Both the position numbers and the translations under genes were made by a program. From Candidatus Omnitrophota bacterium (GTDB lineage: Bacteria; Omnitrophota; Gorgyraeia; 2-01-FULL-45-10), in the NCBI GenBank assembly GCA_041661345.1, contig JBAZUO010000007.1:1-64000 (forward strand): DNA of 64,000 nucleotides, written 5' to 3'. Every line of letters starts with the position of its first letter. Positions within the stretch are counted from its first letter, which is position 1. A model generated the notes under the pieces. It was not told where the DNA came from. It searched no databases and saw only the letters and a list, made by a program, of their open reading frames with translations. Positions 1,649 through 41,363 of this stretch are shown here, one piece after another.

Positions 1649-1651
1649 CGA

Positions 1652-4775: not shown

Positions 4776-4779
4776 AAAT

Positions 4780-6914: not shown

Positions 6915-6922
6915 ATAACCAT

Positions 6923-9606: not shown

Positions 9607-9629
9607 AATGATTCCGGAGGGTTTTAGTC

Positions 9630-10220
9630 ATGAGAAATAAGAGCGGTCTATTATTGATTTCGGTGTTATTGCTCGTCATGCTGCCGATATCGGGATGCGG
9701 TAAGAAGCCCGAGGTGAGCATGCTGAAGGTTGTGGCAAAGATAAATAATTACGAGCTTACTACAGAGGATTTCAGGGAAGAGGCCCGTCTCGCGCTTGCG
9801 CGTCAATATCCGATAGGCGAGTCGGATAAGGCCAAGGAAGATCTCCTGGATGAAATGATAGTAAAGAAGTTATTGATACAGGAGGCCCAGGCGCACAACT
9901 TCGACAAAGACAGGGCGTTCATGAAAGAAATAGAGAGGTACTGGGAGCAGGCGTTATTGAAGCTTCTTATAAAAAATAAGATCCAGGAGTTTGCGCAGCA
10001 TATCACCGTAGACGAAGATGAAGTGAAGAAAGAATATGACAGGATAATAAGCCAGGAAGGCTCGGGCGCTGGATCGTTTGAGAAACTTTCCACCGGCATA
10101 AGGAGCGACTTAAGGCGAAAAAAAATAAATGACGCGTTTAATAATTGGATATCGGGTTTAAAAAGTAAATCGAATGTGAAAGTGTACAAAGAAAATTTAA
10201 AGTACATTGTTGTTAAATAA
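9630..10220 (+). CDS. Lipoprotein with SurA-N-terminal-like chaperone domain
   Basis: 196 aa with a lipobox (LPISGCG). The helical region (EDLLDEMIVKKLLIQEAQ) resembles the SurA/PpiD N-domain, but no PPIase domain is present. Confidence 0.5.
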   Translation: MRNKSGLLLISVLLLVMLPISGCGKKPEVSMLKVVAKINNYELTTEDFREEARLALARQYPIGESDKAKEDLLDEMIVKKLLIQEAQAHNFDKDRAFMKEIERYWEQALLKLLIKNKIQEFAQHITVDEDEVKKEYDRIISQEGSGAGSFEKLSTGIRSDLRRKKINDAFNNWISGLKSKSNVKVYKENLKYIVVK

Positions 10221-10231
10221 GAGAGGTTCCC

Positions 10232-10765
10232 ATGGATAAACCGGTCTTGGAGAGAAGAAGGCATTATTACATCAATAAACAATTTCAGAGAAACTTCATA
10301 CTGAAATTCTGCGCGCTGGCGCTTGTCGGTTCGATAGTTTCCGGCTGTATCATTTACATGATGTCTCAGGCGACTGTAACGACGACATTTGAGAACTCGA
10401 GGCTCACGATGAAGAGCACGGCAGACTATATTTTACCGGCCGTATTTCTCGCGACAGCGATAGTTATTATTCTGGTGGGGGCCGCGACTGTATTTATCAC
10501 GCTGTTCACATCACATAAAATAGCGGGGCCGCTGTATAGAATAGAAAAGGATATCGATGAGGTGACAAGCGGAAACCTCAAAGTCCTTTTCCATTTAAGA
10601 AATGGCGATGAGATAAAGCCGATAGTAGCCCGCCTTAATGCCATGGTTGAATCTTTAAGGCATCGTGTCGCGGATATTAAGGAGGCAGTAAACGACCTTG
10701 ACGCGGGTTCCAATAAAGAGAAGATCAAACGGATTAAAGATGCGGTGGATAAATTAAAAACCTGA
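10232..10765 (+). CDS. Two-TM HAMP-domain protein without output domain
   Basis: 177 aa with two TM helices followed by a HAMP-like segment (SHKIAGPLYRIEKDIDEVTSGNL...IVARLNAMVESL) and a short coiled coil. Confidence 0.6.
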   Translation: MDKPVLERRRHYYINKQFQRNFILKFCALALVGSIVSGCIIYMMSQATVTTTFENSRLTMKSTADYILPAVFLATAIVIILVGAATVFITLFTSHKIAGPLYRIEKDIDEVTSGNLKVLFHLRNGDEIKPIVARLNAMVESLRHRVADIKEAVNDLDAGSNKEKIKRIKDAVDKLKT

Positions 10766-10776
10766 CCTCTATCGAT

Positions 10777-11355
10777 ATGAGATTATTTTTAAAGTCTACG
10801 CTTTTCTTTATTGCAGCGGTTTTTGTGTTGTCCGCGAATGCGAACGCTGAGGAAAACGCGGTCAAAAGCCCGGAGGAGCTGTGGTTTACCATAAAGAGCG
10901 CGTATATGAAAATTTACTGTGAAAATACGGTGGACTTGAAAACGATAGGGTACAAAATTTCCAACAGGGGGTTGTTTGTCAACAGAGTCTACGACCCTAA
11001 CCCCGTCGGTGCGCCTGCCGAGAAGATAGCCTATATGCTGGATAGGCTGCTGAAAAGGACAAAAGATATATTGGGTATGTGGCCCGAGAATTTCAATCTC
11101 GAGATCAAAATATTTAAAGACAGGGATCAATTGAACGGAGAATACTCCAGGATATTTGGTACGAAGCCCGACTATAAAGCATTTTACATATACAAATATA
11201 ACACCATCTACACATCCGAAGAGGACATATCTGGCTCTATTGTAGCCCATGAGATGGGCCATGCGGTAGTAGATCATTATTTCTCGGCAATTCCTCCGGC
11301 GCAGGTTAGGGAGGTTCTGGCTCAGTATGTTGATTTGCATCTGGAGGGCGAATAA
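10777..11355 (+). CDS. Secreted HExxH protein (putative MA-clan metallopeptidase-like)
   Basis: 192 aa with a signal peptide (FVLSANANA/EE) and the motif VAHEMGHAVVDH. The 183-aa antisense ORF lacks any such features. Confidence 0.5.
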   Translation: MRLFLKSTLFFIAAVFVLSANANAEENAVKSPEELWFTIKSAYMKIYCENTVDLKTIGYKISNRGLFVNRVYDPNPVGAPAEKIAYMLDRLLKRTKDILGMWPENFNLEIKIFKDRDQLNGEYSRIFGTKPDYKAFYIYKYNTIYTSEEDISGSIVAHEMGHAVVDHYFSAIPPAQVREVLAQYVDLHLEGE

Positions 11356-11398
11356 TTAAATATGTTTGTTAAGTGATAAAAAAGTTTGTTTTATGTGA

Positions 11399-11427
11399 TT
11401 GACGTTATGCGGTTTTCATGGTACACT
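11399..11427 (+). promoter_or_regulatory. Sigma-70-like promoter (TTGACG-17-TACACT)
   Basis: TTGACG lies at 11399-11404 and TACACT at 11422-11427 with a 17-nt spacer. It sits upstream of the GGAGGA RBS and the ATG at 11454. Confidence 0.45.
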
Positions 11428-11453
11428 TGTCATATAATCTGGAGGATTTGATA

Positions 11454-11849
11454 ATGAGAAAAAGCTTAATAATTGCGATTGCGCTATTTGCTGTTACGGC
11501 GTTCCTTGTGGGGGGTGTTTTTGCAGAGGATTTAGGTTTTAAAATTACCTCTCTTAAAGGCAAGGTTCTTGTGAAAAAGGCCGGTTCCGAGGAGTGGATT
11601 GCCGCTCAGATAGGACAGATATTGAACAAGAACGATGCGGTGAAAACACTTGAAGACGGAATGGCATATATCGAATTTTCGCCAAACACGGGTTTCACGT
11701 TAAAGCCGAATTCACTACTAGTACTTACAGATGATATCAATCCGCCGATTGCAGAACCATACACCGAAGCGGGGCGGGAGAGCAGGGAGACCATAGATAA
11801 TGTCATGGCACCGGCGGTAAATCAGGATAACCAGGCAAGCCAAACATAA
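11454..11849 (+). CDS. Secreted FecR-like domain protein
   Basis: The start is taken at ATG 11454 (RBS GGAGGA at 11441-11446) rather than 11418. It has a signal/TM segment, and LKGKVLVKKAGSEEWIAAQIGQILNKNDAVKTLEDGMAYIEF resembles a FecR-type beta domain. Confidence 0.45.
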   Translation: MRKSLIIAIALFAVTAFLVGGVFAEDLGFKITSLKGKVLVKKAGSEEWIAAQIGQILNKNDAVKTLEDGMAYIEFSPNTGFTLKPNSLLVLTDDINPPIAEPYTEAGRESRETIDNVMAPAVNQDNQASQT

Positions 11850-11873
11850 AGTTGCATTGATAGCAGGATATCG

Positions 11874-11906
11874 AGTAGGGGCTTTCTAAAAGGCCCCTAC
11901 TTTTTT
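11874..11906 (+). terminator. Rho-independent terminator
   Basis: The stem GTAGGGGC (11875-11882) pairs with GCCCCTAC (11893-11900) and is followed by TTTTTT (11901-11906). Confidence 0.75.
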
Positions 11907-11919
11907 CATGTTTAGCCTA

Positions 11920-11947
11920 TTGACAATAACCCGTCACATGATATAAT
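11920..11947 (+). promoter_or_regulatory. Sigma-70-like promoter (TTGACA-16-TATAAT)
   Basis: Consensus hexamers lie at 11920-11925 and 11942-11947, upstream of the OM-barrel/wza/wzc operon. Confidence 0.6.
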
Positions 11948-11973
11948 CCTATGTAATTATGGTACAGGAGATT

Positions 11974-13212
11974 ATGAAAAAAGCCAAAATACAGGTTGTC
12001 GCGGGGTTGGTGGCACTGACAGCGGTTTTATGCCTTTGGGGTACGGCGAATGCCGGGCTTGATAATCCGGACTTGCCGGATCGCGAAGGTATCAAGGTGA
12101 TCAATAACATAAAGATCCACGGTGCATTCAGGACGTCCGAAGAACTCGATACGAACATATACTTAAGTGACGCCAAGGCTAAGTTTGATGCGATCACCGT
12201 GCTTGTCCCGTCCGGTGGAATAGAGATACCTATGGGGGATAGTAAGATCAGCGCGGATTACGAAGCCGACATAAATCTATACGGCAAATATACTACTGAA
12301 AACCATATAAACCAGCGCGCGAGAGCTCTCGCCGAGATAAACCTTACGGATTACAAGATAACAGTAGATGAAGTGCTTAAGGACTACACCGATCGTGCTT
12401 CGGATGAAAATTCAAGGCGCATCGAAAGGTTTAATAATAACATGAGGGTGGGAGTGGAGGCCCAATTTAACAAGTTCGGCTTCGACGCAGGCTACACGAA
12501 TATATTCGATACATATGGCTCGAAAGATGATCTTATTTACCAGTCGATCACATATGGCGATAGAGACAGGGTTTACAATATAGTCGATGGTTCGATAAGC
12601 TACAGGTTTATGCCTAAGACATCCATCTTCCTTGAATCGGATCTTGGCTTCATTAACTATTACAACAGCTCTATCCCGCCCAATTCGTGGTATATTCAGA
12701 CCTTCGTTGGTCTAAAAGGCAGGCCCACCAATAAGATCCTTGCCAATATTAAAGGCGGTTTCAAATATCAGGGCTATTCCAGTTCAAATATATATAATGA
12801 TAAGCCTTTCGCCGGCCTTGTGGCATCAGGAGGAATCGATTATTCTGTGACGAACGATGACACTCTGGGTTTTGGCATAGAGAAGAATACGTACGAATCG
12901 ACGTACCAGAACATGAACTACTATGACGCCTGTATCGTAAGCCTTGATTATAAACACAGGTTTAATAAAAAACTGTTGTTTAAATCCTTCGGGTCTTACC
13001 AGATCAATCTCTATCCTGGTCAAACCGTAGAGGGCGGTCTTTACGACAAGAGATATGATAATTTTTACTCAGGGGGTTTGAGCTTTAGGTATGATATCCA
13101 GAAGTGGGCATCTCTGGAGTTCAAATATGAATATAGCCAGAAGAGTTCCAGATTCCATATTTACGACTACGTGGACAATCGGATCATTTTTAGCGGCACC
13201 GGTGGTTTTTAA
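11974..13212 (+). CDS. Outer-membrane beta-barrel protein of the polysaccharide export operon
   Basis: The start is taken at ATG 11974 (RBS AGGAG). It has a signal peptide (LWGTANA), alternating Tyr/Gly-rich beta-strand pattern, and a C-terminus ...IFSGTGGF with the terminal Phe typical of OMPs. Confidence 0.6.
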   Translation: MKKAKIQVVAGLVALTAVLCLWGTANAGLDNPDLPDREGIKVINNIKIHGAFRTSEELDTNIYLSDAKAKFDAITVLVPSGGIEIPMGDSKISADYEADINLYGKYTTENHINQRARALAEINLTDYKITVDEVLKDYTDRASDENSRRIERFNNNMRVGVEAQFNKFGFDAGYTNIFDTYGSKDDLIYQSITYGDRDRVYNIVDGSISYRFMPKTSIFLESDLGFINYYNSSIPPNSWYIQTFVGLKGRPTNKILANIKGGFKYQGYSSSNIYNDKPFAGLVASGGIDYSVTNDDTLGFGIEKNTYESTYQNMNYYDACIVSLDYKHRFNKKLLFKSFGSYQINLYPGQTVEGGLYDKRYDNFYSGGLSFRYDIQKWASLEFKYEYSQKSSRFHIYDYVDNRIIFSGTGGF

Positions 13213-13213
13213 T

Positions 13214-14053
13214 ATGAAAATTGCTATTTCATTATTTGCGCTCGCGCTTATCACTGCTGTCCTGCCGTTGAGCGCGCATGCCGAAAAATCACAATACAAA
13301 CTGCAGCCTCTCGATGTCATAAGCATCACCGTTCATCAGCAGCCGGACCTGAGCACTAAAACCAGAGTTGCCGCCGATGGATCTATTTCATTTCCTCTCA
13401 TAGGCAAAATAGCCTCTGCCGGCCTGACGGTCCAGGAGCTGGAGCAGAAGATCAAGGGGCTTCTTGAGAAAGATTACCTCGTGAAAGCGGAGGTGCTTGT
13501 ATTTATCGAGGAATATCGCGCAAGGCAAGTCTCTGTGACGGGCGAAGTGAATAATGCCGGTAAGTTCAATATCCCAATCGAGAGAGAGATAACGCTACTT
13601 GAGGCTGTGGCAATGGCCGGAGGATTTACGAAGGACGCCGATATAAACAGGACCAAGGTACTCCGCGAGGAAAACGGCGAGAAGAAGGCGATAACCATAA
13701 GAGTTAAGGATATAACCGATAAAGACCAGAAGGACGAGAACATAGTGCTCCGGCCTGACGATATAATAGTGGTTCCCAAGAGGTTTTTCTTCTCCGTCAT
13801 GGGGGAAGTGAAAAGCCCCGGCAAGTTCGATATGCCGACGGAGCGAAGTGTGACGCTGTTGGAGTCTATCGCGATGGCTGGCGGTTTCACTAAAGACGCG
13901 GATCTCGGCAAAGTCAAAGTGATGCGGGTCGAGGACAATGAGAAGAAGACGATATTTATCAATATCAAGGATATAACCGAAAAAGACCAGAAGGATAAAG
14001 ATATACCTCTGGAAGCCGATGATATAGTGTTTGTTCCGGAGAGCTTTTTTTAG
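13214..14053 (+). CDS. Polysaccharide export protein (Wza/GumB-like, Poly_export + 2 SLBB domains)
   Basis: The start is taken at ATG 13214 (signal peptide MKIAISLFALALITAVLPLSAHA). The ORF-track start at 13091 overlaps the upstream gene. It carries a PES-type motif (LQPLDVISITV...DGSISFPLIG) and two SLBB-like repeats. Confidence 0.85.
   Translation: MKIAISLFALALITAVLPLSAHAEKSQYKLQPLDVISITVHQQPDLSTKTRVAADGSISFPLIGKIASAGLTVQELEQKIKGLLEKDYLVKAEVLVFIEEYRARQVSVTGEVNNAGKFNIPIEREITLLEAVAMAGGFTKDADINRTKVLREENGEKKAITIRVKDITDKDQKDENIVLRPDDIIVVPKRFFFSVMGEVKSPGKFDMPTERSVTLLESIAMAGGFTKDADLGKVKVMRVEDNEKKTIFINIKDITEKDQKDKDIPLEADDIVFVPESFF
13532..14053 (+). repeat. Tandem 261-bp (87-aa) intragenic duplication (two SLBB modules)
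   Basis: Copy 1 is 13532-13792 and copy 2 is 13793-14053. About 53 of 86 aa are identical by hand count, including LLE..AMAGGFTKDAD and KDIT.KDQKD. Confidence 0.8.
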
Positions 14054-14064
14054 GGGACCGCCGA

Positions 14065-15732
14065 ATGACAGATTTTACCGTAAATAATGAACTTCATATA
14101 AAAGATTATCTGAACATCCTATACCGTCGACGGGGTGTAATTGCGCTATTTTTTATCACGATAGTGCTGACCGTTGTTCTTGGTAGTTTCATGATGAAAC
14201 CCGTTTATCGTGCCAAGGTGGAGCTATTCATTGACCTGGAGAATCCTAACGTTTTGACGGCATCCGGAATAGTGGAGCTTCAATCTCAGAATTACTATTC
14301 ATACAAAGAATATTATCAGAGCCAGAAAGAGATATTGACGTCACTGCCCATAATGCAGAAAGTTTTTGACGAGTCCGGCCTGGCGAATAGTAAGGAGTAT
14401 GCGAGAGCGAAGGAACCGATTAAAAAATTTTTGAAGACCATAAAAGTTGAACCTGTCCGCGATACCAGGCTCCTGGAATTATATGTTGATAATAAAGACC
14501 CCGAACTTGCCGCTAAAATAGCAAACCGTATAGCCGAGATATATGTAAAACGCAACTTATACTATGTAAGCAAAACAGAGCTGTTAAATCTCCTTAAAAA
14601 CGAATATCTGAAATTGGATTCGAAATTATCGGAATACAGCAAGATATATAAAGAAGGCCACCCCGAGATGATGAGGCTCAAAAAAGAGATCGAGGAACTC
14701 GTCAATAAAATAGAGGCTGAAAAGAAGCTGGCTGTCCAGGATGATTACCTTAAGCAGGAAGAGCTGCTTGATTATAAGTACACCCTGGAAGGGCTTAAAG
14801 CTAATAACGTAAGCATTCTTGCTGCTGCGGAGATTCCGAAAGCGCCCGTAATGCCGAAAAAGCTTTTGAACCTTGTTTTATCCATAGTCATAGGGTTATT
14901 TGGCGGCATCGGATTCGCGTTTTTCTACGAATACATGGACGACACGATCAAGGAAGCGGCCGACCTTAGCAGCATAACTAATTTGTCTTTTCTCGGGAGT
15001 ATACCGAAAATTAATTCAGGGCGGGGTATGTCCGAATTCGAAAAGGACATATTTGTTCACGTCAAACCGAAAGACCCGATAGCGGAAGCCTACAGATCGA
15101 TAAGGACAAGTATCCTATTTTCCTCCGGCGCGGAAAATCCGATCAGGAGTGTTATATTCACAAGTCCAGCTCCACAGGAAGGCAAAACCACCACTTTGTG
15201 CAATATCGGCATAGCCATGGCCCAGAATCAGAAGAAGGTGCTTCTGGTCGACGCGGATATGCGTAATCCCCGGCTTAACGAGGTTTTTAAGAAGGATAAC
15301 AAGGAGGGTTTAAGCACATTTCTATCCAGGCCGCGCGTGAGCTTATCGAGCCTGATACAGAAGACCAATATAGAGAATCTTTCGTTGATCACGAGCGGCA
15401 TTAACCCACCGAATCCATCGGAGTTACTGGCAAGCCCGAAGCTCATTGATCTGATTGATCAGGCTAAAAAGGAATTTGACTTTATACTTTTTGATACTCC
15501 GCCGATAGCGATACTTACCGATGCCGCTATACTCTCAGGATACGCGGACGGCGTTGTTCTGGTTGTTGAAAGCGGCAAGACTCCCAAAAAGATTCTTAAT
15601 AGGATCTCAAAAATTTTGAGCGAAGCCAAAGCCAGGGTAATAGGCATAGTGCTGAACAAGCTGGTAGCCAGTAGCAGTGATTACTACTATTACTCCTATT
15701 ATTACTCCAGATCGTCTAAAAAGGCAAAATAA
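14065..15732 (+). CDS. Polysaccharide co-polymerase / tyrosine autokinase (Wzc-like)
   Basis: 555 aa with a Wzz-like N-domain carrying two TM helices. The kinase motifs are Walker A SPAPQEGKTT, A' VLLVDADMRNP and B FILFDTPP. The C-terminal Tyr cluster is SSSDYYYYSYYYS. Confidence 0.9.
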   Translation: MTDFTVNNELHIKDYLNILYRRRGVIALFFITIVLTVVLGSFMMKPVYRAKVELFIDLENPNVLTASGIVELQSQNYYSYKEYYQSQKEILTSLPIMQKVFDESGLANSKEYARAKEPIKKFLKTIKVEPVRDTRLLELYVDNKDPELAAKIANRIAEIYVKRNLYYVSKTELLNLLKNEYLKLDSKLSEYSKIYKEGHPEMMRLKKEIEELVNKIEAEKKLAVQDDYLKQEELLDYKYTLEGLKANNVSILAAAEIPKAPVMPKKLLNLVLSIVIGLFGGIGFAFFYEYMDDTIKEAADLSSITNLSFLGSIPKINSGRGMSEFEKDIFVHVKPKDPIAEAYRSIRTSILFSSGAENPIRSVIFTSPAPQEGKTTTLCNIGIAMAQNQKKVLLVDADMRNPRLNEVFKKDNKEGLSTFLSRPRVSLSSLIQKTNIENLSLITSGINPPNPSELLASPKLIDLIDQAKKEFDFILFDTPPIAILTDAAILSGYADGVVLVVESGKTPKKILNRISKILSEAKARVIGIVLNKLVASSSDYYYYSYYYSRSSKKAK

Positions 15733-15738
15733 ATTTCA

Positions 15739-15812
15739 GGGGCTGTGGTGAAGAGGGATCACATCACAATGGCATTGTGAGGTCACGAGTTCGATTCTCG
15801 TCAGCTCCACCA
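15739..15812 (+). tRNA. tRNA-Ala (anticodon GGC), CCA encoded
   Basis: Hand-folded cloverleaf. The acceptor GGGGCUG/CAGCUCC has G3:U70, the D arm is GUGA-AGAGGGA-UCAC, the anticodon arm is UCACA-AUGGCAU-UGUGA, the T arm is ACGAG-UUCGAUU-CUCGU, and the 3' end is ACCA. Confidence 0.9.
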
Positions 15813-15816
15813 ATGT

Positions 15817-15975
15817 AAATTTGCCTTCGCCAAAAACTATCGTCTTGGTTTTTGGCTCCGGCCGCCGCAAGTAAAGCGACGGCGGGCTAATCGCCCAAAT
15901 TTTTTAAGGAGAAATAAAAGTTTCTATTTAATGTGTTTTTTCCCTTTAAAATATCCCTTCCTCTTAGAAAGTGTT
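15817..15975 (+). repeat. tRNA-trailer structured repeat, copy R1
   Basis: R1 is homologous to 18161-18313 (about 75% identity by eye over the first ~95 nt). It contains the hairpin GCCAAAAAC (15829-15837) / GTTTTTGGC (15848-15856), the GC hairpin CCGCCG/CGGCGG (15862-15885), and an AT-rich hairpin followed by TGTGTTTTTT. It ends at the ATG at 15976. Confidence 0.7.
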
Positions 15976-17913
15976 ATGATAACCAGGATCTTTAATCAAA
16001 AGTATAAGTTATCAGTCATAAGTACGTTGCTCTTGCTGGGCGTACTAATCTACTCGACCACCTTTTACAATCCCTTCCATTTTGACGACTATCCTACAAT
16101 TGTAAATAATGCCGCCATAAGACATATCTTGAATTTACAGATTATATGGAATTCATGGCCCACCCGTTTTATAATTTTTGTATCATTGGCTTTCAATTAC
16201 TATTTGAGCGGATTAAATGTATTCAGTTATCACCTCTTTAACTTTTTAACCCATCTATGCGCTGCCGTCATGGTTTGGTGGTTTATATTTCTTACATTTT
16301 CCACACCTGCAATGTTCGGGAAAAAGATTACCAAACACGCTAATCTTATCGCTTTTTTCGGGGGGTTGGTGTTTATGGTGCACCCCGTGCAAACTCAAGC
16401 GGTAACTTATATTTCTCAGCGGGCAGCTTCTCTGGCAACCTTGTTTTATCTGGTTTGTTTAAGCCTGTATGTTAAATCAAGACTCTTGCAGCAACAAGGT
16501 GAAGCTCCGGCGGCTTCAAGTATATTCTATTACTGGTCACTGATGATCTCAGTCATGGCCATGTTTACCAAAGAGATTGCCATGACCTTGCCGTTGATGG
16601 TATTATTGTATGAGTATTGTTTTCTGAGAACAAAAGAAAAGTTTAATTGGAAATATCCAGCTCCTTTCCTTGCCACTATATTGATCATCCCGCTCACGAT
16701 GTTCCTAACTAAATTTGTAGATTTCGCGGGAATGCGGAATGCCCTGGAACCCCTTCCCGATGTTTCTCCCTGGCAGTATCTTCTTACCCAGTTCAGGGTC
16801 GTAGTTACATACATTAGGCTGCTTTTTATACCAATAAACCAGAATTTAGATTATGATTATCCCATTGCGAAACACCTGCTGGATTTGCCTACTTTGGCAA
16901 GCCTTATTCTTTTAGTTTTAATCTTAATTATTGCGATCAGGGCATTCTCTAAATATAGATTGATCTCATTTGGTATTTTCTGGTTTTTCTTAACGCTTTT
17001 ACCCGAGTCTAGCATTATCCCGATTAGAGATGTGATTTTTGAGCATAGGCTTTATTTACCGATGGTTGGGTTCAGCTTCTTCCTGGTAAGTGTCATATAT
17101 TACATTTTTGAAAATAGATCTTTTAAATTAATGGTCATGGCGTTAATTATTATAACTTCTTGTTATACGGTTCTCGCCTACGAAAGAAACCTTATCTGGA
17201 AGGATGATCTTACCTTATGGAATGATACGATGCATAAATCACCCAATAAAGTAAGACCCATCGGTAATCGCGGGCTTGCATATTTTCAGCAAGGTAATTT
17301 CACTCAAGCTATTTCCGACTTTACCAAGGCAATTGAAATAGATCCTAACTATGCAAAAACCTATAATAATCGCGGAGCTGTCTACGGCCGGCAGGGCAAA
17401 TTACCACAAGCCATTTCCGATTATACCAAGGCAATTGAAATAGATCCTAACTATGCAGATGCTTATAATAATCGTGGGGCTATCTACAGTCAACAAGGCA
17501 GCTTACCTCAAGCCATTTCCGATTATACCAAGGCAATTGAGATAGATCCTGACTATGCAGACGCCTATAATAATCGCGGGAATGCTTACTGTGACAAAGG
17601 CAGCCTACCCCAAGCTATTTTAGACTTTACCAAAGCTATTGAGATAGATCCTGACTATGCAGACGCCTATAATAATCGCGGGGCTATATACGGTCAACAA
17701 GGTAATTTACCTCAAGCCATCGCAGACTTTACTAAGGCCATCGGGGTAGATCCTGGTTATGCGGCAGCCTATAATAATCGTAGTTTTAGCTATTATACGG
17801 CAAAGGAATATGACAAGGCCTGGGCAGATCTGCATAAAGCAGGAGAATTGGGATACTCTGTCGATCTTAAGTTTCTTGATGCACTTAAGAAAGCATCTGG
17901 AAGAGAAAAGTAG
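15976..17913 (+). CDS. GT-C-like polytopic membrane protein fused to TPR repeats (TMTC/PMT-like architecture)
   Basis: The start is taken at ATG 15976 (MITRIF...), because the 15931 start lies inside the repeat. It has about 11 TM helices with FHFDDYPTIVNN in the first loop, followed by 7 or more TPR units with the consensus QAISDYTKAIEIDPNYADAYNNRG. Confidence 0.7.
   Translation: MITRIFNQKYKLSVISTLLLLGVLIYSTTFYNPFHFDDYPTIVNNAAIRHILNLQIIWNSWPTRFIIFVSLAFNYYLSGLNVFSYHLFNFLTHLCAAVMVWWFIFLTFSTPAMFGKKITKHANLIAFFGGLVFMVHPVQTQAVTYISQRAASLATLFYLVCLSLYVKSRLLQQQGEAPAASSIFYYWSLMISVMAMFTKEIAMTLPLMVLLYEYCFLRTKEKFNWKYPAPFLATILIIPLTMFLTKFVDFAGMRNALEPLPDVSPWQYLLTQFRVVVTYIRLLFIPINQNLDYDYPIAKHLLDLPTLASLILLVLILIIAIRAFSKYRLISFGIFWFFLTLLPESSIIPIRDVIFEHRLYLPMVGFSFFLVSVIYYIFENRSFKLMVMALIIITSCYTVLAYERNLIWKDDLTLWNDTMHKSPNKVRPIGNRGLAYFQQGNFTQAISDFTKAIEIDPNYAKTYNNRGAVYGRQGKLPQAISDYTKAIEIDPNYADAYNNRGAIYSQQGSLPQAISDYTKAIEIDPDYADAYNNRGNAYCDKGSLPQAILDFTKAIEIDPDYADAYNNRGAIYGQQGNLPQAIADFTKAIGVDPGYAAAYNNRSFSYYTAKEYDKAWADLHKAGELGYSVDLKFLDALKKASGREK
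17305..17814 (+). repeat. Five tandem 102-bp repeats (34-aa TPR units) with high nucleotide identity
   Basis: Unit starts (caagcYatttc...) fall at 17305, 17407, 17509, 17611 and 17713. Long stretches are identical at the DNA level (e.g. accaaggcaattga[a/g]atagatcct[a/g]actatgcaga). Confidence 0.85.
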
Positions 17914-18005
17914 ATGTGCGAGTCCTTATTGTATCTATATGTTAATAAAAGAGTTGTGTCAATTATCATCTCCCTGAAATTTGTTCCTTTCGATTTAGAA
18001 AAATC

Positions 18006-18034
18006 TTGCTACTTCTAACCAATAATTATATAAT
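18006..18034 (+). promoter_or_regulatory. Sigma-70-like promoter for tRNA-Leu (TTGCTA-17-TATAAT)
   Basis: TTGCTA lies at 18006-18011 and TATAAT at 18029-18034, about 37 nt upstream of the tRNA 5' end. Confidence 0.5.
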
Positions 18035-18071
18035 AACGCTACTGAATTAGAGAGAGAAGATTTATTGTAGT

Positions 18072-18158
18072 GCCGAGGTGGCGGAACTGGCATACGCGTC
18101 GGTCTCAAAAACCGATTTCCTCACGGATATGAGGGTTCAACTCCCTCCCTCGGCACCA
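18072..18158 (+). tRNA. tRNA-Leu (anticodon CAA), type II, CCA encoded
   Basis: The acceptor is GCCGAGG/CCUCGGC and the anticodon arm is UCGGU-CUCAAAA-ACCGA. It has a long variable arm (UUUCCUCACGGAUAUGAG), a T arm GAGGG-UUCAACU-CCCUC, and ACCA at the 3' end. Confidence 0.9.
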
Positions 18159-18160
18159 TA

Positions 18161-18313
18161 CAACTTTTGGCCTCCGCCAAAAACTGTTGTCTGGTTTTTG
18201 GCTCTGGCCTGCCAATAAGCAAACGACGGCATAGGCTCGCGCCCAAAAGTTTTTAAAGGGAAACGTAGTTTCCCTTTAACGTATCCTTTTCTTAAGGGAA
18301 AGCGTTTGGAGTT
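18161..18313 (+). repeat. tRNA-trailer structured repeat, copy R2
   Basis: R2 contains the hairpin GCCAAAAAC (18176-18184) / GTTTTTGGC (18194-18202) and a second GC-rich imperfect hairpin. It also has the perfect palindrome TTAAAGGGAAAC-gta-GTTTCCCTTTAA (18253-18279). It ends at the nfo ATG (18314). Confidence 0.7.
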
Positions 18314-19159
18314 ATGCGCATAGGATTGCATGTTTCGATAGCAGGAAAGATATATGAGTCGCTTGAGCGCGCCAGGGCGCTTGGCTGTAATACCATGCAG
18401 ATCTTTAGCCGGAATCCCAGGGGCTGGGAGGCAGCGAAGCTCGACAAGAATGATGTGGAAGAATTCAGGCGGCTTAAACTTAAGTATGACATAAAGCCGG
18501 TTGTCGTGCATATACCGTATATAATCAATCTTGCTACGCCCGACGACAAATTGTATAATAGATCTATCGAAACATACATAAAAGATATAGAGAGGGCAGA
18601 CCTTTTAGGAGCAGAATATTTTGTTACGCATCTTGGAAGCCACACCGGCAGCGGCGAAGATAACGGCATAAATCGTTTTGCGTCGGCGCTTAAGACTATT
18701 ATAAAACGCGTTAATCCCAAAGCGATGATACTTTTAGAGAATACAGCCGGTTCGGGTGACGGTATAGGTTATCGCTTCGAGCACATTAAGAAGATAATAG
18801 AGAAGCAGGCAGTGCCTTCGAGGGTAGGTGTATGTCTTGATACCGCGCATACTTTCGCGGCAGGCTATGATATAGAAAGTTTATCGGGGCTTAATAGCAT
18901 ACTGAAAAAGTTCGATAAGTTATTGGGACTGGATACAATAAAGGTTGTGCATTTTAATGACAGCCTTGCGCCTTTCGACTCTCATGTTGACAGGCATCAG
19001 CACATAGGAAAGGGCAGCATTGGACTTGAGGCGATGGGCCGGATAATAAATTATCCTAAGCTAAAGAATGCGGCGTTTATTATGGAGACTCCAAAAGAAT
19101 CGGATAGGGATGACAAAAGAAACATGGCGACAGCGAAAAAACTGTATAAAGGAAAATAA
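18314..19159 (+). CDS. nfo: Deoxyribonuclease IV (endonuclease IV)
   Basis: 281 aa. The N-terminus MRIGLHVSIAG...LGCNTMQIFSRNPRGW and the H/D/E metal-ligand pattern (VVHIPY, THLGSH, ENTAG, CLDTAH, HFNDS) are typical of Nfo. Confidence 0.9.
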   Translation: MRIGLHVSIAGKIYESLERARALGCNTMQIFSRNPRGWEAAKLDKNDVEEFRRLKLKYDIKPVVVHIPYIINLATPDDKLYNRSIETYIKDIERADLLGAEYFVTHLGSHTGSGEDNGINRFASALKTIIKRVNPKAMILLENTAGSGDGIGYRFEHIKKIIEKQAVPSRVGVCLDTAHTFAAGYDIESLSGLNSILKKFDKLLGLDTIKVVHFNDSLAPFDSHVDRHQHIGKGSIGLEAMGRIINYPKLKNAAFIMETPKESDRDDKRNMATAKKLYKGK

Positions 19160-21645
19160 TGATAGAGATGGACGAAAAATTATACCCATTCGATAAAATA
19201 GAACCGAAGTGGCAGAAATTCTGGCGTGATAAAAAACTATTTAACGTCGATACAAAGAATTACACCGATAAATATTATTGTCTCATGATGTTCCCGTATC
19301 CCTCCGCGGCGCTCCATGTAGGCCACGGCAGGAATTATATCATCGGCGATGTCGTAGCGCGCTACAAGATGATGAGAGGTTTCAATGTGCTTACGCCCAT
19401 GGGTTTCGATGCGTTTGGACTTCCGGCGGAGAATGCCGCTATAAAAGGCGGGATACATCCGAAGACGTCCACGTTGAATAATATCAACACGATGAAACGC
19501 CAGCTGAACCAGTGGGGTGTGGAATACGATTGGGACAGGGTGGTCATATCATGCCTTCCGGAATACTATAAGTGGACTCAGTGGATATTCGTTAAATTAT
19601 ACGAAAAAGGCCTCGCCTACAAGAAGAAGGCCTTTGTTAACTGGTGCCCTTCGTGCAAGACGGTGCTCGCGAACGAGCAGGTTGTGAACGGCAAGTGCGA
19701 ACGATGCGACTCGGTCGTTACGCAGAAAGATCTTGAACAGTGGTTCTTCAAGATAACCCATTATGCCGATAGGTTATTACAAGACCTAGGCAAACTTACG
19801 GAATGGCCTGAACGGGTTAAGACGATGCAGGCTAACTGGATAGGGAAGAGTGAAGGTGTTGAGATCGATTTTAAAATAGAAAACTTCTCCGAAGTCCTAA
19901 GGTGTTTTACTACGAGAGTTGACACCATCTACGGGGCAACGTTCATAGCGCTGGCGCCGGAACATCCGCTTGTCGACAAACTGATAAAGGGTGTCAAAGA
20001 TGAAGCGGCAGTATCGAAGGCCGTCGGAAAGATGCGCGATGAATCGAAGATCGACCGCTCGCAGGCCAATGTCGAAAAAGAAGGCGTCTTTACAGGCAGA
20101 TTTGTTATAAATCCGGTTAATTCGAAAAAGATACCGATCTGGGTATCGAATTACATCCTGATGGAATACGGGACGGGCGCCATCATGGCTGTTCCGGCCC
20201 ACGATGAAAGGGATTTTGAATTTGCAAAGAAGTATAAACTGCCGATAGAAGTCGTGATAGATGACCCGAAGAATCATTTGAATGCCGTGACGATGAAAGA
20301 GGCGTATGTGGGCGAAGGGGTAATGGTCAACTCCGATAAATTTAGCGGGTTAAAGTCCGTAGATGCCGTTAAGAAAATAGCGGATTACTTCGAAGACAAG
20401 AAATTCGGCAAAAGGAGCGTGCAGTATAAGCTAAGGGACTGGCTCATCTCCCGGCAGAGGTACTGGGGAGCGCCTATACCCATTATCTATTGTCCGAAAT
20501 GCGGTACGGTAGCTGTGCCGGATAAAGATCTCCCGGTCCTATTGCCGGAGAACGTTGAATTCAGGCCTACGGGCGAGTCTCCGTTAAAAGCGGCGAAAAA
20601 TTTTGTCAGTACGAAATGCCCGAAGTGCAATGGCCCGGCGGCGAGGGATACCGATACGATGGATACCTTTGTCGACTCGAGCTGGTATTTTTTGAGATAT
20701 ATAACGCCGCATCTTAACGATAAGCCTTTTGACACGGACCTGGTCAATAAATGGCTTCCGGTCGACCAATATATCGGCGGCATAGAGCATGCGATACTGC
20801 ATCTATTATATTCCCGTTTCATTACGAAGTTTCTCCACGATATAAAGATGACGGCTTTCGACGAACCATTCAAGAATCTCTTTACCCAGGGTATGATAAT
20901 AAAAGACGGCGCGAAGATGTCGAAATCGAAAGGCAACGTAGTAAGCCCTGATAAGCTGATCGCGGATTACGGCGCAGATACAGTGAGGCTGTACACCCTG
21001 TTTATCGGGCCGCCGGAGAAAGACGCGGAATGGTCGGATAGGGGCGCGGAGGGCGCGTACCGGTTCCTTGGGAGAGTGTGGAGACTGGTCGAAAAGGTCC
21101 ATAGCTTGCAGCCCGCCGGCAATAATAACAAAGAGGCAACAAAAGAAGCGGAGAGCTTAAGGCGAAAGCTGCATCAGACTATAAAGAAGGTCACAGAAGA
21201 TCTCGACGGAGGATTTCATTTCAATACTGCGATAAGTGCGATCATGGAACTGGTGAACGAGGCCTATGATTATATGGCTAAGTCAAAGAATGGTTCAGGC
21301 AGCGAAATCTTTAAAGAGGCGGTTAAAAGCCTGATAATGCTGCTTTCACCGTTCGTGCCGCACATAGCGGAAGAGATGTGGCAGGCCACGGGCGGGAGCG
21401 GCAGTATATTTAAATGCAAGTGGCCGCAATATAACGAGGCCTTCATTACCGAAAAGGTGATAACCATTCCCATTCAGATAAACGGTAAGCTTAGGTCCAG
21501 GATCGAGGTGGACACCGATATCAGTGAAGAAGCTTTAAAGATGGCTGTCCTGTCCGAAGATAAAACTAAAAATTGGATCGGTGGTAAAGAAGTAAAGAAG
21601 ATCATAATCATTCCAAAAAAACTGGTCAACGTAATTATTCCTTAG
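19159..21645 (+). CDS. leuS: Leucine--tRNA ligase
   Basis: 828 aa with the HIGH motif (PSAALHVGHGRNY) and the KMSKS motif (GAKMSKSKGN). The CP1 editing domain region is present. Confidence 0.97.
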   Translation: MIEMDEKLYPFDKIEPKWQKFWRDKKLFNVDTKNYTDKYYCLMMFPYPSAALHVGHGRNYIIGDVVARYKMMRGFNVLTPMGFDAFGLPAENAAIKGGIHPKTSTLNNINTMKRQLNQWGVEYDWDRVVISCLPEYYKWTQWIFVKLYEKGLAYKKKAFVNWCPSCKTVLANEQVVNGKCERCDSVVTQKDLEQWFFKITHYADRLLQDLGKLTEWPERVKTMQANWIGKSEGVEIDFKIENFSEVLRCFTTRVDTIYGATFIALAPEHPLVDKLIKGVKDEAAVSKAVGKMRDESKIDRSQANVEKEGVFTGRFVINPVNSKKIPIWVSNYILMEYGTGAIMAVPAHDERDFEFAKKYKLPIEVVIDDPKNHLNAVTMKEAYVGEGVMVNSDKFSGLKSVDAVKKIADYFEDKKFGKRSVQYKLRDWLISRQRYWGAPIPIIYCPKCGTVAVPDKDLPVLLPENVEFRPTGESPLKAAKNFVSTKCPKCNGPAARDTDTMDTFVDSSWYFLRYITPHLNDKPFDTDLVNKWLPVDQYIGGIEHAILHLLYSRFITKFLHDIKMTAFDEPFKNLFTQGMIIKDGAKMSKSKGNVVSPDKLIADYGADTVRLYTLFIGPPEKDAEWSDRGAEGAYRFLGRVWRLVEKVHSLQPAGNNNKEATKEAESLRRKLHQTIKKVTEDLDGGFHFNTAISAIMELVNEAYDYMAKSKNGSGSEIFKEAVKSLIMLLSPFVPHIAEEMWQATGGSGSIFKCKWPQYNEAFITEKVITIPIQINGKLRSRIEVDTDISEEALKMAVLSEDKTKNWIGGKEVKKIIIIPKKLVNVIIP

Positions 21646-21656
21646 AGATTATTGTC

Positions 21657-22001
21657 ATGTTCAACCTCACCAGAACGGAAAAATTCATAATAATATTTTT
21701 GTCGGTTTCTTTATTGATAGCTATTGCCGTCAAGACGTACATCGCCTCAAGGCCGCATGGCGATATCAGAATAGAAAAATTCGATGCGGATTCCACGCGC
21801 AGTCCGGAGAAGATAAATATAAATGCGGCCGGAGCGGAAGAGCTCGAATCCATAAAGGGCGTCGGTAAGGCTTTGGCCGAAAGGATAGTGGAATACCGGA
21901 ATTCTAAAGGCGCATTCGTCATGATAGAAGATATTAAAAATGTAAAAGGCATAGGACGAGCGCTTTTTGAAAAGATCAAAGATAGAATTTCCGTAGAATG
22001 A
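21657..22001 (+). CDS. comEA: ComEA-family helix-hairpin-helix DNA-binding protein
   Basis: 114 aa with an N-terminal TM anchor and tandem HhH motifs (INAAGAEELESIKGVGKALAERIVEYR...IKNVKGIGRALFEKI). Confidence 0.85.
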   Translation: MFNLTRTEKFIIIFLSVSLLIAIAVKTYIASRPHGDIRIEKFDADSTRSPEKININAAGAEELESIKGVGKALAERIVEYRNSKGAFVMIEDIKNVKGIGRALFEKIKDRISVE

Positions 22002-24397
22002 AGCGTCCGATCCTTTATCTACTGATACCATTCTCCATAGGTATCGCGATCTCCCGTCTGTTAAATCTGCCCATCCTATTGTTATTATCGGGCTTTCTAT
22101 TCTTTGCCGTATTGGCACTGGTGATCTCAAAGAACAGCCGGGCCTCTTTCATCGGTTTATATCTTGCGATATTCTTTTTGGGTATGACATTTTATCAGCA
22201 GTCGCTGATCCTACCTTCTTCGCATATATCCAATATCACCACAAACGAGCCTAACTCTGTATTTTTAAGAGGTGTGATTGCCGACGATCCCGTTATTTCC
22301 GATACGCCTTATGGAACCAAAAAGGCAAGATTTACGCTGAATGCCATTTCGGTCAAACTCAATGGTGCCTGGAGAGATGCAACGGGCCCTGTAATGGTCA
22401 GCGTTAATTCAAAATACGAAAGACGGTATAGATATGGCGATGAGCTGTTGCTCGAAGGTGTTCTTCTAAGGCCCGGGAGCCTTAAGAATCCCGGGCTTTT
22501 TGATTATGAGAAATATCTGGGGATGAAAGGTATCTATTCATGTTTAAGAGTCAAAGATGATAACCTGGCAAAAGTTATAGGATATCGGGCAAACTGGATC
22601 ACGGCGGCATCATACAATGTTAGAGATCGTCTGGATAGGGCGCTGGATGAACGGCTCGAAGGTTCTTACGCCGGTTTTCTTAAATCGATAATCACGGGCG
22701 ATAGGACAGGGCTCGGCGATGATGTCCAGGATGATTTCATCAAGACCGGTACCGTCCATGTGATTGCGATCAGCGGACTGCAGGTTGGATTGATAGCCGG
22801 CATGTTCCTGGCCCTATTCGGCGTATTGAGAATTCCGAAGAGAATAAACCTTGTGCTTACACTCGTAATATTGGTCTTCTACTCTTTCATGACCGGCGCA
22901 AACCCTCCGATATTAAGAGCGGTTATAATGTTCTTCGTATTTGTTATCGGATACCTTATAAATAGAAAGTCGGATATCCTGAACTCCCTTTCTCTTGCGG
23001 CGCTTGCTATTCTTTTGTGGAACCCGAAGGAATTGTTCGATCCCAGCTTTCAACTTTCCTTCATATCCGTCGCGGGAACCATCATTCTCTGTCCTGCAAT
23101 TGATAAATTATTCGGCCTGGCGGATCCACATGGGATGTCTGTATTAATAAAGATAAAAAGGTATTTACTGAAGGGTGTATCCGTCTCGATCGCCGCATGG
23201 CTTGCCAGCTGGCCTTTTGTAGCATCCTATTTTAATATCGCTTCTCCGATATCGGTAATTGCGAATCTAATAGTTGTGCCTATGCTGTTTGTCCTAACGG
23301 TTGTTTCGTTTATATTTTTTGCGGTAAATCCTTTGGCATCGTCTTTGGCCGCAGCTCTTTCCGTTATGTTATTGAAACTGGAGCAGTTTCTATTTTTAAT
23401 AAATCATATTCTGGCAGGGGTACCTCTTGCGTACATAAGAATGAAATCACCCGGCGCGGTGTTCACCGTGATCTATTATTGCCTGCTGTCGTTACTTATC
23501 ATACCCAGGTACAGAAAACAGATTGTCATAGCGTCTCTCATCGCGATGAATCTTCTCATTTATTCGGAAATATCCGGTTGCATCAGGAGAGACCTAAAAA
23601 TGACATTTCTGGATGTGGGGCAGGGGGACTGTGCGCTTCTGGAAATGCCGGATGGTAAGAATGTATTGATCGACGGCGGAAGCGCCGGCGATGACGGAAG
23701 ATTCGATACAGGTAAATCAGTCATAGCTCCGTATTTATGGAATAAAGACATATATATGATCGATGCCGTTATAGCTACTCATTTTCACGAGGATCATATC
23801 GGCGGGATAATATATATACTTGAGAATTTCAAAGTCGGATGTGTCATAGATAACGGCGCCCACGCTGCCGACAACGCGGTCCATGATAAATATATCAGGC
23901 TCATAAAAGAAAAAGGAATCCGCCGTATAACGGTGGGAGAAGGGGATGTGATAAATTTGTCGTCGGATGCCAGGATATTTATTCTGAATCCGCCGCGAAC
24001 AGAAGAGCTTTTCGACTCAAATGAAAATTCTTTGTTGATGAAATTGATATATAAAAATTTCAGCTGTTTATTTTGTGGCGACGTGATCAATGATCCGATT
24101 TCGCGCCTGGCCGGTTATGGAAAATTTCTGAAATCCGATGTCATGAAAATTCCTCATCATGGAGGTAATCTCGGAGATGCAGTAATTTCAAATAATTTTT
24201 TTGAAATGGTATCGCCCGATGTCAGCATAATCAGCGTAGGTAAAATTAACACATACAATATGCCTTCGCCAAAAACATTAAATGCCTTAAAGTATTTAAA
24301 ATCAACAAGTTATGTCACTAAAGACTCCGGTGCGATAGAGATTATTATTGATGGTGATAGGCATCATATCCCGATCTATAATGTATCAAAAAACTAA
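21998..24397 (+). CDS. comEC: DNA internalization-related competence protein ComEC/Rec2
   Basis: 799 aa with a polytopic competence domain (GTVHVIAISGLQVG) and a C-terminal metallo-beta-lactamase domain (ATHFHEDHIGG). Confidence 0.9.
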   Translation: MKRPILYLLIPFSIGIAISRLLNLPILLLLSGFLFFAVLALVISKNSRASFIGLYLAIFFLGMTFYQQSLILPSSHISNITTNEPNSVFLRGVIADDPVISDTPYGTKKARFTLNAISVKLNGAWRDATGPVMVSVNSKYERRYRYGDELLLEGVLLRPGSLKNPGLFDYEKYLGMKGIYSCLRVKDDNLAKVIGYRANWITAASYNVRDRLDRALDERLEGSYAGFLKSIITGDRTGLGDDVQDDFIKTGTVHVIAISGLQVGLIAGMFLALFGVLRIPKRINLVLTLVILVFYSFMTGANPPILRAVIMFFVFVIGYLINRKSDILNSLSLAALAILLWNPKELFDPSFQLSFISVAGTIILCPAIDKLFGLADPHGMSVLIKIKRYLLKGVSVSIAAWLASWPFVASYFNIASPISVIANLIVVPMLFVLTVVSFIFFAVNPLASSLAAALSVMLLKLEQFLFLINHILAGVPLAYIRMKSPGAVFTVIYYCLLSLLIIPRYRKQIVIASLIAMNLLIYSEISGCIRRDLKMTFLDVGQGDCALLEMPDGKNVLIDGGSAGDDGRFDTGKSVIAPYLWNKDIYMIDAVIATHFHEDHIGGIIYILENFKVGCVIDNGAHAADNAVHDKYIRLIKEKGIRRITVGEGDVINLSSDARIFILNPPRTEELFDSNENSLLMKLIYKNFSCLFCGDVINDPISRLAGYGKFLKSDVMKIPHHGGNLGDAVISNNFFEMVSPDVSIISVGKINTYNMPSPKTLNALKYLKSTSYVTKDSGAIEIIIDGDRHHIPIYNVSKN

Positions 24398-40499: not shown

Positions 40500-40570
40500 T
40501 CAAAAATTAGTTTTGTCCCCCATATATAAAGATGCTAAAACAGGCGATTTTGTTGCAAACTATTTTAAAA
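40500..40570 (-). repeat. Direct repeat copy A (upstream of spoVG)
   Basis: It contains the 20-nt core cccccatatataaagatgct (40517-40536), which is identical to 41312-41331, and TTGCAA (40553-40558) at the same 42-nt offset as in copy B. Confidence 0.8.
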
Positions 40571-41306: not shown

Positions 41307-41363
41307 AAATCCCCCCATATATAAAGATGCTTAAAATGCCTAAATTATTGCAAGTTTTTTAAA
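41291..41363 (-). repeat. Direct repeat copy B (ECF sigma 3' end / anti-sigma 5' end junction)
   Basis: The core lies at 41312-41331. TTGCAA (41348-41353) here encodes the last two sigma codons (L-Q), followed by the stop. Copy B is 795 bp from copy A. Confidence 0.8.

Follow-up and report, generated by a model that had tools for sequence, protein, structure and literature searches.

SPRITE, ERIC and Correia elements are dispersed structured repeats of 100-170 nt, which are multi-copy, lie in intergenic regions and are co-transcribed with their neighbours; they have a predicted RNA fold, can create nuclease sites or terminator-like hairpins, and can alter flanking expression (PMC3184786). We analyzed a stretch of 64,000 nucleotides from a Candidatus Omnitrophota bacterium (GenBank assembly GCA_041661345.1, contig JBAZUO010000007.1, positions 1 to 64,000 of the forward strand), hereafter called the window, in which two similar segments, R1 (15813..15975, plus strand) and R2 (18159..18313, plus strand), follow the genes of tRNA-Ala(GGC) and tRNA-Leu(CAA). 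Judging from sequence comparison, R1 and R2 are independent copies, belonging to different subfamilies, of a dispersed ~150-nt CCA-trailing element, here called the A element, whose family is apparently undescribed. It resembles SPRITE, ERIC and Correia in size, copy number, predicted RNA folding and, as we infer here, co-transcription. In contrast to them it is tied to the CCA of tRNA or transfer-messenger RNA (tmRNA) genes and has a fixed orientation to these stable-RNA genes, two properties which the review reports for none of the three (PMC3184786). Terminal inverted repeats mark Correia and ERIC, and a TA duplication is a further feature of Correia, whereas neither was found at the ends of the A element. 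No sequence or model match to SPRITE, ERIC or Correia was found either.

Other described systems share with the A element the vicinity of tRNA genes. The 3'ETS-leuZ RNA, a trailer of ~50 nt from E. coli glyW-cysT-leuZ, reportedly acts as a small-RNA sponge through Hfq; the likeness is that of an RNA which derives from the trailer directly past a tRNA 3' end and is released by tRNA processing. However, 3'ETS-leuZ is a single locus ending in the operon terminator, whereas the A element is multi-copy, forms a multi-helix junction, follows many tRNAs and often runs into an open reading frame (ORF). Plant tRNA-snoRNA (small nucleolar RNA) genes are a parallel for an RNA that hitch-hikes on a tRNA promoter. 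Plant mitochondrial t-elements and the MALAT1 mascRNA are tRNA-like processing signals: they too are structured modules near a transcript end which serve as punctuation for the tRNA-processing enzymes, and the 7-bp helix that closes several arms in the A element recalls a cloverleaf. But tRNA and mascRNA models miss the A element, and its arms have the wrong size (a 13-bp helix P2, a 4-bp mini-hairpin with a loop of 4-5 nt). Integrase attachment (att) sites are said to lie in tRNA and tmRNA genes with a preference for certain sublocations and, like the A element, to favour the 3' part of such genes, whatever their many identities. Att scars duplicate a tRNA 3' segment and flank an integrase island, whereas no tRNA sequence is duplicated in R1 and R2 and no integrase is flanked by them.

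The two tRNA genes of the window are on the plus strand and encode their CCA: tRNA-Ala(GGC) at 15739..15812 and tRNA-Leu(CAA) at 18072..18158 (ARAGORN; 57.6 and 57.9 bits with the Rfam tRNA model). The initial annotation had noticed similar segments behind them, and this similarity is real. The local alignment of R1 and R2 scores 82, compared with 15.4 +/- 2.1 (maximum 24) for 500 shuffles and 16.1 +/- 2.3 (maximum 28) for random window segments; BLAST gives 78% identity over 101 nt, and both copies begin right past the CCA. The hairpin GCCAAAAAC-N9/10-GTTTTTGGC, which the annotation placed 17-18 nt past the CCA, was found there and nowhere else: it has exactly two sites in the window (15829-15856 and 18176-18202), where none is expected by chance, and begins at base 17 past the CCA in R1 and at base 18 in R2. 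Similarity wanes ~125-130 nt into the elements. The statement that both copies end exactly at a start codon holds only by the way the intergenic region was delimited; the 3' 10-30 nt are not alignable, and the start of the gene following R1 is uncertain. Searches of the 64 kb with nhmmer, BLAST and a covariance model found no third copy. A match of 19/20 nt to the 5' part of R1 (ATGCCTTCGCCAAAAAC) at 24257-24276 lies inside the ORF of comEC and has no second hairpin arm; it was discarded as probably due to chance.

From 5' to 3', the A element consists of a spacer, P1, P2, the P3 region, a mini-hairpin, the 3' strand of P1, P4 and a pyrimidine-rich tail or P5. P1 is an A/U-rich closing helix of 7-9 bp (CAAATTTGG / CCAAATTTG and variants). 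P2, near-invariant in sequence, is composed of GGCC, a 3x3 pyrimidine internal loop and then GCCAAAAAS-loop-STTTTTGGC. The P3 region is variable and is followed by the mini-hairpin GGGC-N4/5-GCCC; P4, directly past P1, is a hairpin of 11-13 bp with a purine-rich 5' arm; and the tail can in many copies pair with a purine run of Shine-Dalgarno type behind it, giving P5. In R1 (covariance-model match 15810-15947, 110 bits, E = 9e-23) these parts are distributed as follows: spacer ATGT at 15813-15816; P1 at 15817-15823 paired with 15896-15902; P2 at 15823-15862, with its invariant inner stem at 15829-15837 paired with 15848-15856 and an internal loop TTC/TCC; P3 region at 15863-15884; mini-hairpin GGGC-TAATC-GCCC at 15884-15896; a degenerate P4 at 15904-15931; and a pyrimidine-rich tail at 15932-15975, reaching the ATG at 15976. 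In R2 (match 18156-18295, 122.5 bits, E = 1e-25) the spacer TAC is at 18159-18161 and P1 at 18162-18170 paired with 18243-18251. The outer P2 stem GGCC is at 18169-18172 paired with 18206-18209, and the inner P2 stem at 18176-18184 paired with 18194-18202, with an internal loop TCC/TCT. P3 (18210-18231), a degenerate mini-hairpin (18232-18244), P4 (18252-18279), P5 (18284-18302) and the Shine-Dalgarno sequence GGAG (18308-18311) complete R2. The covariance model was built from 21 copies, and its E-values are rough.

This shared fold is supported by folding and by comparison of copies. R1 and R2 each fold below their shuffles with z = -3.7, and P1 and P4 of R2 are present in its unconstrained minimum-free-energy fold. 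Across copies, 97.7% of the pair cells hold a standard pair, compared with 87.6% in shuffles, and 72 cells are altered on both sides, compared with 24; pairing falls from 97.7% to 64-68% when the partners are slid by one column. Compensatory changes concern 4 of the 7 pairs of P1 and 8 of the 11 pairs of P4, two helices which are not part of the search pattern. A pseudoknot between the loops of P2 and P3 was looked for by eye, and no consistent complementarity was seen across copies.

Pattern scans and the covariance model gave more than 20 further copies beyond R1 and R2, in two Omnitrophota metagenome-assembled genomes (MAGs) and in metagenome contigs. The genome scan used the hairpin core with one genome per species and the metagenome scan a stricter pattern; the copies per genome and the taxonomic range obtained from both are lower bounds. 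Among the matches listed, those of the genome scan were mostly chance hairpins in other phyla; at least 4 copies were found in the marine Omnitrophota MAG JAHJHP01 and at least 1 in the MAG JAQUSB01. The metagenome scan gave at least 20 loci, after which L126 and L141 were set aside as chance matches to the hairpin pattern. One metagenome contig (Ga0082335_1000255), assigned to Omnitrophota by a homologue search with its ThrRS, carries 4-5 copies. The covariance model had no match in 95 non-Omnitrophota loci (688 kb) with the same hairpin core, so that the core alone is not a specific marker. No match to the element was found in viral contigs, phage genomes or plasmids, and an origin from phages or plasmids was therefore rejected.

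The position of the copies is as constant as their fold. The element begins 0-6 nt past the encoded CCA, after an A/U-rich spacer, and is oriented on the same strand as the tRNA or tmRNA gene; in nearly all true matches the hairpin starts 12-17 nt past the CCA of a same-strand tRNA. The overall count is 12 tRNA anticodon types, among them Ala(GGC), Ala(CGC), Leu(CAA), Leu(TAA), Lys(CTT), Val(GAC), Val(TAC), Phe(GAA), Cys(GCA), Met(CAT) and Gln(CTG). In one locus (L128) a tmRNA is directly upstream (Rfam), and copies without a detected upstream tRNA are still preceded by '...ACCA'. The initial annotation had suggested a family of tRNA-linked terminator or processing elements, a small RNA or recombination scars; the reading as a family is borne out by these Omnitrophota copies behind tRNA or tmRNA CCA ends, and it is almost certain that the A element is a family with this position and this fold. 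In L135 (6462-6683, minus strand) the tRNA upstream of the copy is an initiator-like tRNA(CAT) interrupted by a group I intron (Rfam). The same kind of tRNA(CAT) is present in L129 (1594-1709), where a 50-nt insert, then GCTACCA repeated over 7 nt and then an A copy lie behind it. Copies also occur in tandem: L057 (4503-4970) and L136 (311-830) contain at least 2 with a period of 223 nt, joined by a palindromic linker GTCATTGCGAG...CGACGAAGCAATCTCG, and the later copies are without the 5' strand of P1; contig L057 terminates within the array. Some copies are truncated (L012, L128), and one is an orphan (L137).

Known families gave no counterpart. With Rfam 15, only the two tRNAs of the window reach the gathering threshold; at E <= 10 nothing credible falls on R1 or R2, the best being Spot_42 on the minus strand (20.7 bits, threshold 80), while tmRNA_permuted gives 14.8 bits (threshold 47). 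On the related loci no Rfam family matches the element copies either, and the literature searched describes nothing similar to a CCA-trailing element, in agreement with the initial annotation, which recognised no described repeat class. Several candidates were compared feature by feature. RAYT-associated REP/BIME are imperfect palindromes of 20-40 nt with a conserved 5' tetranucleotide of GTAG type, often arranged in inverted pairs, whereas the A element has ~150 nt, five helices, no GTAG head and a single orientation. A T-box leader might be expected upstream of leuS or thrS, but there is no Rfam T-box match at E <= 10 and copies also precede tRNAs, promoters and unrelated genes, so this idea was rejected. 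HDV-like and hatchet ribozymes have no match at E <= 10, and P2 is a self-contained hairpin where the HDV fold needs a strand pairing with the 3' tail.

A second family of trailers, the B-units, was observed in related loci, with a core of ~100 nt and no member in the window. B-units are located in L143 (2920-3056 and 3170-3312), L144 (5249-5405 and 5560-5699, minus strand), L091 (150-286, minus strand), L134 (64-223), L130 (2128-2288 and 3981-4118) and L146 (9698-9862). Each starts with a linker followed by an antisense copy of the T-loop and T-stem of its own tRNA (e.g. GGGGATTTGAA versus TTCAAATCCCC). The core is composed of two conserved arms, GCGCCGA...GAGGAAAAG-hairpin-CGACAGC...GGCTGG-hairpin, and at the end of the unit the final 20 nt of that tRNA, CCA included, are repeated exactly. 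What comes next can be an A element, a tRNA or a further B-unit. B-units have no Rfam match; they may have arisen as an att-type duplication or a retro-copy, or may mimic the 3' half of the tRNA. The 20-nt duplication of the tRNA 3' end is shared with att scars, and is not found in R1 and R2. Other lineage-specific repeats were seen at this position: in L147, CCATTCTGCTACGCCCGT...ACTGAGGTAGGGC is located behind tRNA-Cys as well as behind tRNA-Leu (9260-9300 and 9518-9560), and hairpins rich in GTACC/GGTAC are found behind tRNA-Val in L147 and behind tRNA-Leu in L009 (1092-1249). In Omnitrophota, the tRNA trailer seems to be a niche open to structured repeats in general. In L143, an A copy and a truncated B-unit are followed, ~170 nt further on, by a c-di-AMP riboswitch (3627-3782, 83 bits).

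The 3' side of the element gives indications on its transcription. By the model match, R2 ends 18 nt before nfo-leuS, and R1 ends 28 nt before the ORF of a TPR protein with a GT-C-like membrane domain (15976..17913, plus strand; hereafter GT-C/TPR); the copy of L132 ends 13 nt before thrS. No promoter-like site was found between element and gene in any of the three, which argues that the element is not a strong terminator. A simple scan flagged P4 of R2 with CGTATCCTTT, and the mini-hairpin of R1 with CAAATTTTTT, as terminator-like. They are unlike the canonical, bidirectional-looking terminator GAGTAGGGGC-loop-GCCCCTACTT then TTTT, found at 11873-11902 after ORF 11418-11849, which indicates that this genome uses ordinary G+C-rich terminators. 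No internal sigma-70 promoter was found in the element, by scan or by eye. The sole promoter-like site before tRNA-Leu, R2 and nfo is TTGCTA-17-TATAAT at 18006..18034 (plus strand), 38 nt upstream of tRNA-Leu, a sigma-70-like site found by consensus scan (10/12 positions) that is a consensus match only. In relatives the same junctions are short: tRNA-Leu is separated from nfo by 9 nt in L012 (1783-1793) and by 13 nt in L004 (9986-10001), and tRNA-Leu(TAA) lies 20-46 nt before thrS-infC-rpmI-rplT-pheST in L146 (9954-10001), L148 (9980-10001) and L149 (9974-10001), an order of genes after thrS which is that of the relatives. Distances of 9-46 nt imply co-transcription of these tRNAs with the genes that follow; in particular the 9-13-nt spacers mean that tRNA-Leu and nfo-leuS must be co-transcribed, and R2 looks like a separate gain at their junction. 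Aminoacyl-tRNA synthetase operons thus appear to be transcribed from tRNA promoters. No Shine-Dalgarno sequence is visible before nfo in L012 and L004. For thrS of L132, the Shine-Dalgarno sequence is supplied by the purine arm of P5.

From these distances and contexts we propose that the A element, a trailer module transcribed together with its tRNA, spreads by copy-and-paste, a reading to which we give about an even chance. The element would be transcribed as the 3' trailer of the tRNA; in the window, no space is left for a promoter from tRNA-Leu to nfo. Once folded, it would act in cis as a punctuation between the tRNA and whatever comes next: the A/U-rich stretch past the CCA would be an entry site for an endonuclease, read-through from the strong tRNA promoter would be damped and not abolished, and the downstream mRNA would be left with a folded 5' end as well as a Shine-Dalgarno sequence, provided by R1 for GT-C/TPR and by R2 for nfo-leuS. 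This function of punctuation in cis is proposed a little more tentatively, at somewhat under an even chance. The copies would move between tRNA loci by some copy-and-paste route, which would explain their patchy, multi-copy distribution. The nearest copies of R1 and R2, which sit behind other tRNAs, and the existence of tandem, truncated and orphan copies are in support of such a spread.

Identities among copies were computed over the first 88 nt. R1 and R2 are 73% identical, whereas R1 is 88% identical to a copy behind tRNA-Gln (L143a) and 83% identical to that of L091, and R2 is 90% identical to a copy behind tRNA-Val(GAC) (L133) and 83% identical to a copy behind tRNA-Leu(TAA) (L132). The subfamilies of R1 and R2 differ in the sequence of P1 and, within P2, in its loop and its innermost pair. 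As each is nearer to copies elsewhere than to the other, R1 and R2 are not direct repeats of one insertion. The surroundings of nfo homologues with 78-86% identity were then compared. In six related loci tRNA-Ala(GGC) and tRNA-Leu(CAA) adjoin just upstream of nfo-leuS with no gene between them, in tandem in L002 (37 nt apart), L012 (70 nt) and L009 (390 nt), and divergent in L004, L006 and L013. The presence of the GT-C/TPR gene in the window is therefore specific to its lineage, and the order tRNA-Leu-nfo-leuS is conserved. L012 has a Wzc gene upstream, as in the window, and only the 5' half of an R-like element behind tRNA-Ala, in which the innermost hairpin pair is flipped from C-G to G-C. 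This truncated element is the only one behind the 24 tRNAs of the loci that were reached through proteins and not through the element pattern. At the tRNA-Cys/tRNA-Val/tRNA-Leu(TAA)/thrS locus of one genome, copies follow tRNA-Cys (L131) and tRNA-Leu (L132), and a further, partial copy with which L132 begins is probably that behind tRNA-Val. In four relatives with ThrRS 79-89% identical, the tRNA|thrS locus has no element, and simple A/U-rich hairpins, another repeat or B-units are found instead.

These comparisons bear on the arrangement of the window, which the initial annotation had read as an insertion or duplication cassette; in such a model R1 and R2 would be either the direct repeats of an inserted or duplicated GT-C/TPR gene with tRNA-Leu, or att-type scars. 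One part of this reading stands, since none of the six related loci has the GT-C/TPR gene between its two tRNAs; and the lower G+C of this gene was confirmed, if modestly (GC 0.397 and GC3 0.412, compared with 0.453 +/- 0.031 and 0.524 +/- 0.061 for 35 long ORFs, i.e. ~1.8 standard deviations under the window mean). But low G+C is common to the upstream glycan genes at 722-4775 (0.38-0.39), and the role given to R1 and R2 does not hold: they are not each other's closest relatives, the neighbourhood of the two tRNAs upstream of nfo-leuS in relatives shows tRNA-Leu-nfo-leuS to be the ancestral order, hence tRNA-Leu is not cargo, and no second 3' end of tRNA-Ala or tRNA-Leu is present in 15813-18313. 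In line with the annotation, no Pfam family of integrases or insertion sequences had a match in the 18 ORFs scanned (8 at 11959-24397 and 10 at 21-10220). On the subfamily distances and the conserved gene order, the cassette or att model is rejected as hardly credible. A purely selfish, non-autonomous mobile element, MITE-like (miniature inverted-repeat transposable element) or retro-copied and aimed at the 3' ends of tRNA-type genes, is the main rival of the trailer module, although we consider it less likely than not. The fold would then serve the propagation of the element through a single-stranded DNA or RNA intermediate, and effects on host transcripts would be incidental and tolerated. 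As in MITE families, the copies are multiple and are present or absent at orthologous junctions: the element is missing at the tRNA-Leu(CAA)|nfo site and at the tRNA-Cys/Val/Leu(TAA)|thrS sites of relatives whose proteins are 79-89% identical. The distribution of one subfamily behind different tRNAs in different genomes, the tandem, truncated and orphan copies, and the other lineage-specific trailers in the same niche (B-units, the L147 repeat) point the same way. However, terminal inverted repeats were not found at the element ends; the sole long-range inverted repeat is P1, whose 3' arm is internal, ~90 nt in, with P4, P5 and the tail outside. No target-site duplication was found at tRNA-Leu|nfo when the filled site of the window was compared with the empty sites of L012 and L004, the 9-13-nt spacer being replaced, and no transposase, integrase or reverse transcriptase is present among the genes scanned or listed near copies. 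Moreover, within-genome copies have diverged and yet keep their pairing by compensatory changes, which implies a long residence under selection and favours selection on the fold. Other points weigh against the trailer module. At these junctions relatives lack the element, some having other trailer families in its place, which speaks against a signal essential to the host and is consistent with a selfish repeat. As P2 was fixed in the search pattern, its invariance is in part a matter of ascertainment. Folding has no strand preference, with 7 G-U versus 5 A-C pairs and a reverse complement that folds slightly better, so that an RNA role rests only on the orientation relative to the tRNA. The function assigned to the element is deduced throughout. 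The trailer module and the selfish element are not mutually exclusive.

The remaining explanations give the element an RNA product or a role in making the tRNA end. A trans-acting small RNA that rides tRNA promoters and is freed by the tRNA-processing nucleases would fit the loci in which the element lies between two tRNAs (L012, L040, L130 and L131), where an RNase P cut downstream and 3' processing upstream would free a discrete RNA, and the high conservation of P2 is that of a protein- or RNA-binding surface. But it would imply several diverged copies per genome, one contig alone having 4-5, and the element is absent from close relatives; no conserved single-stranded seed is evident, and P3 varies without being free-form. 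We judge this small RNA improbable. Still less probable is a cis-acting RNA that makes the tRNA 3' end, either a ribozyme cleaving itself at its own 5' edge or a tRNA mimic, with a 7-bp P1 and three arms, that recruits RNase P in the manner of plant mitochondrial t-elements or mascRNA. P1, of 7-9 bp, does close a junction of 3-4 helices right past the CCA, the information content and covariation exceed the needs of plain hairpins, and these genomes encode the RNase P protein subunit RnpA; yet no tRNA, HDV-like, hatchet, twister, pistol or hammerhead model matches at E <= 10, a cut at P1 would miss the mature end since the spacer between CCA and P1 has 0-6 nt, and neither a CCA nor a discriminator base is found past P1. 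The A element and the B-units taken together might also form a new class of bacterial elements, which either homes specifically to CCA 3' ends by a retro route or generates the tRNA 3' end as a cis-acting RNA; this we regard as doubtful, although less so than the small RNA. In the retro route, a reverse transcriptase that finishes the element RNA may switch template to the 3' end of a mature tRNA or tmRNA, and the copy recombine into the gene. Neurospora retroplasmids capture tRNAs by template switching. In the processing route, a ribozyme or an RNase P decoy may generate the tRNA 3' end. Either route would explain why any CCA-ending RNA gene, whatever its sequence, can be a host, as well as the 0-6-nt junction and the 20-nt copy of the tRNA end found with B-units.

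If these results stand, the A element would be a new conserved family of RNA structures from an uncultivated phylum, with an unusually sharp rule of placement: directly past the CCA of a tRNA or tmRNA, in one orientation. Such a rule would reveal either an undescribed way of ending or processing tRNA transcripts coupled to the downstream genes, including the leuS and thrS synthetase operons, or an undescribed targeting mechanism of a small mobile element. For annotation, the lineage-specific structured repeats at tRNA flanks in these genomes break assemblies and can pass for island boundaries.

The genes around the two copies follow one another from 15739 in the order tRNA-Ala, R1, GT-C/TPR, promoter-like site, tRNA-Leu, R2, nfo (18314-19159, plus strand, Pfam AP_endonuc_2), leuS (19159-21645, plus strand, Pfam leucyl-tRNA synthetase domains), comEA and comEC. 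The nfo product has 100% identity to a protein assigned by name to Candidatus Omnitrophota. The GT-C/TPR protein has 645 aa when read from the ATG at 15976; this start is uncertain, with an in-frame ATG at 15931 and one source calling 547 aa. Its Pfam matches are TPR families alone (~residues 414-576), and its putative GT-C label is taken from the source names of homologues ('protein O-mannosyl-transferase'). These homologues form a very large paralogous family in which the best non-self matches are 65-70% identical; tracing the gene through them was abandoned, as no close orthologue emerged. Within the gene, five 102-nt tandem units 61-80% identical (17163-17792) code for the TPR repeats. Upstream, tRNA-Ala starts 7 nt past the stop codon of a Wzc-like kinase gene (14065-15732, Pfam), which closes a complete-looking cluster for polysaccharide synthesis and export at 21-15732 (Pfam): GT2, three GT4, methyltransferases, Wzy-like, a Bac_transf initiating sugar transferase, porin, Wza and Wzc. 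Further away, a 52-nt direct repeat starting with CCCCCATATATAAAGATGCT is present at 40517-40568 and 41312-41363, 77% identical and 795 nt apart; it lies beside minus-strand ORFs and may be a shared regulatory region.

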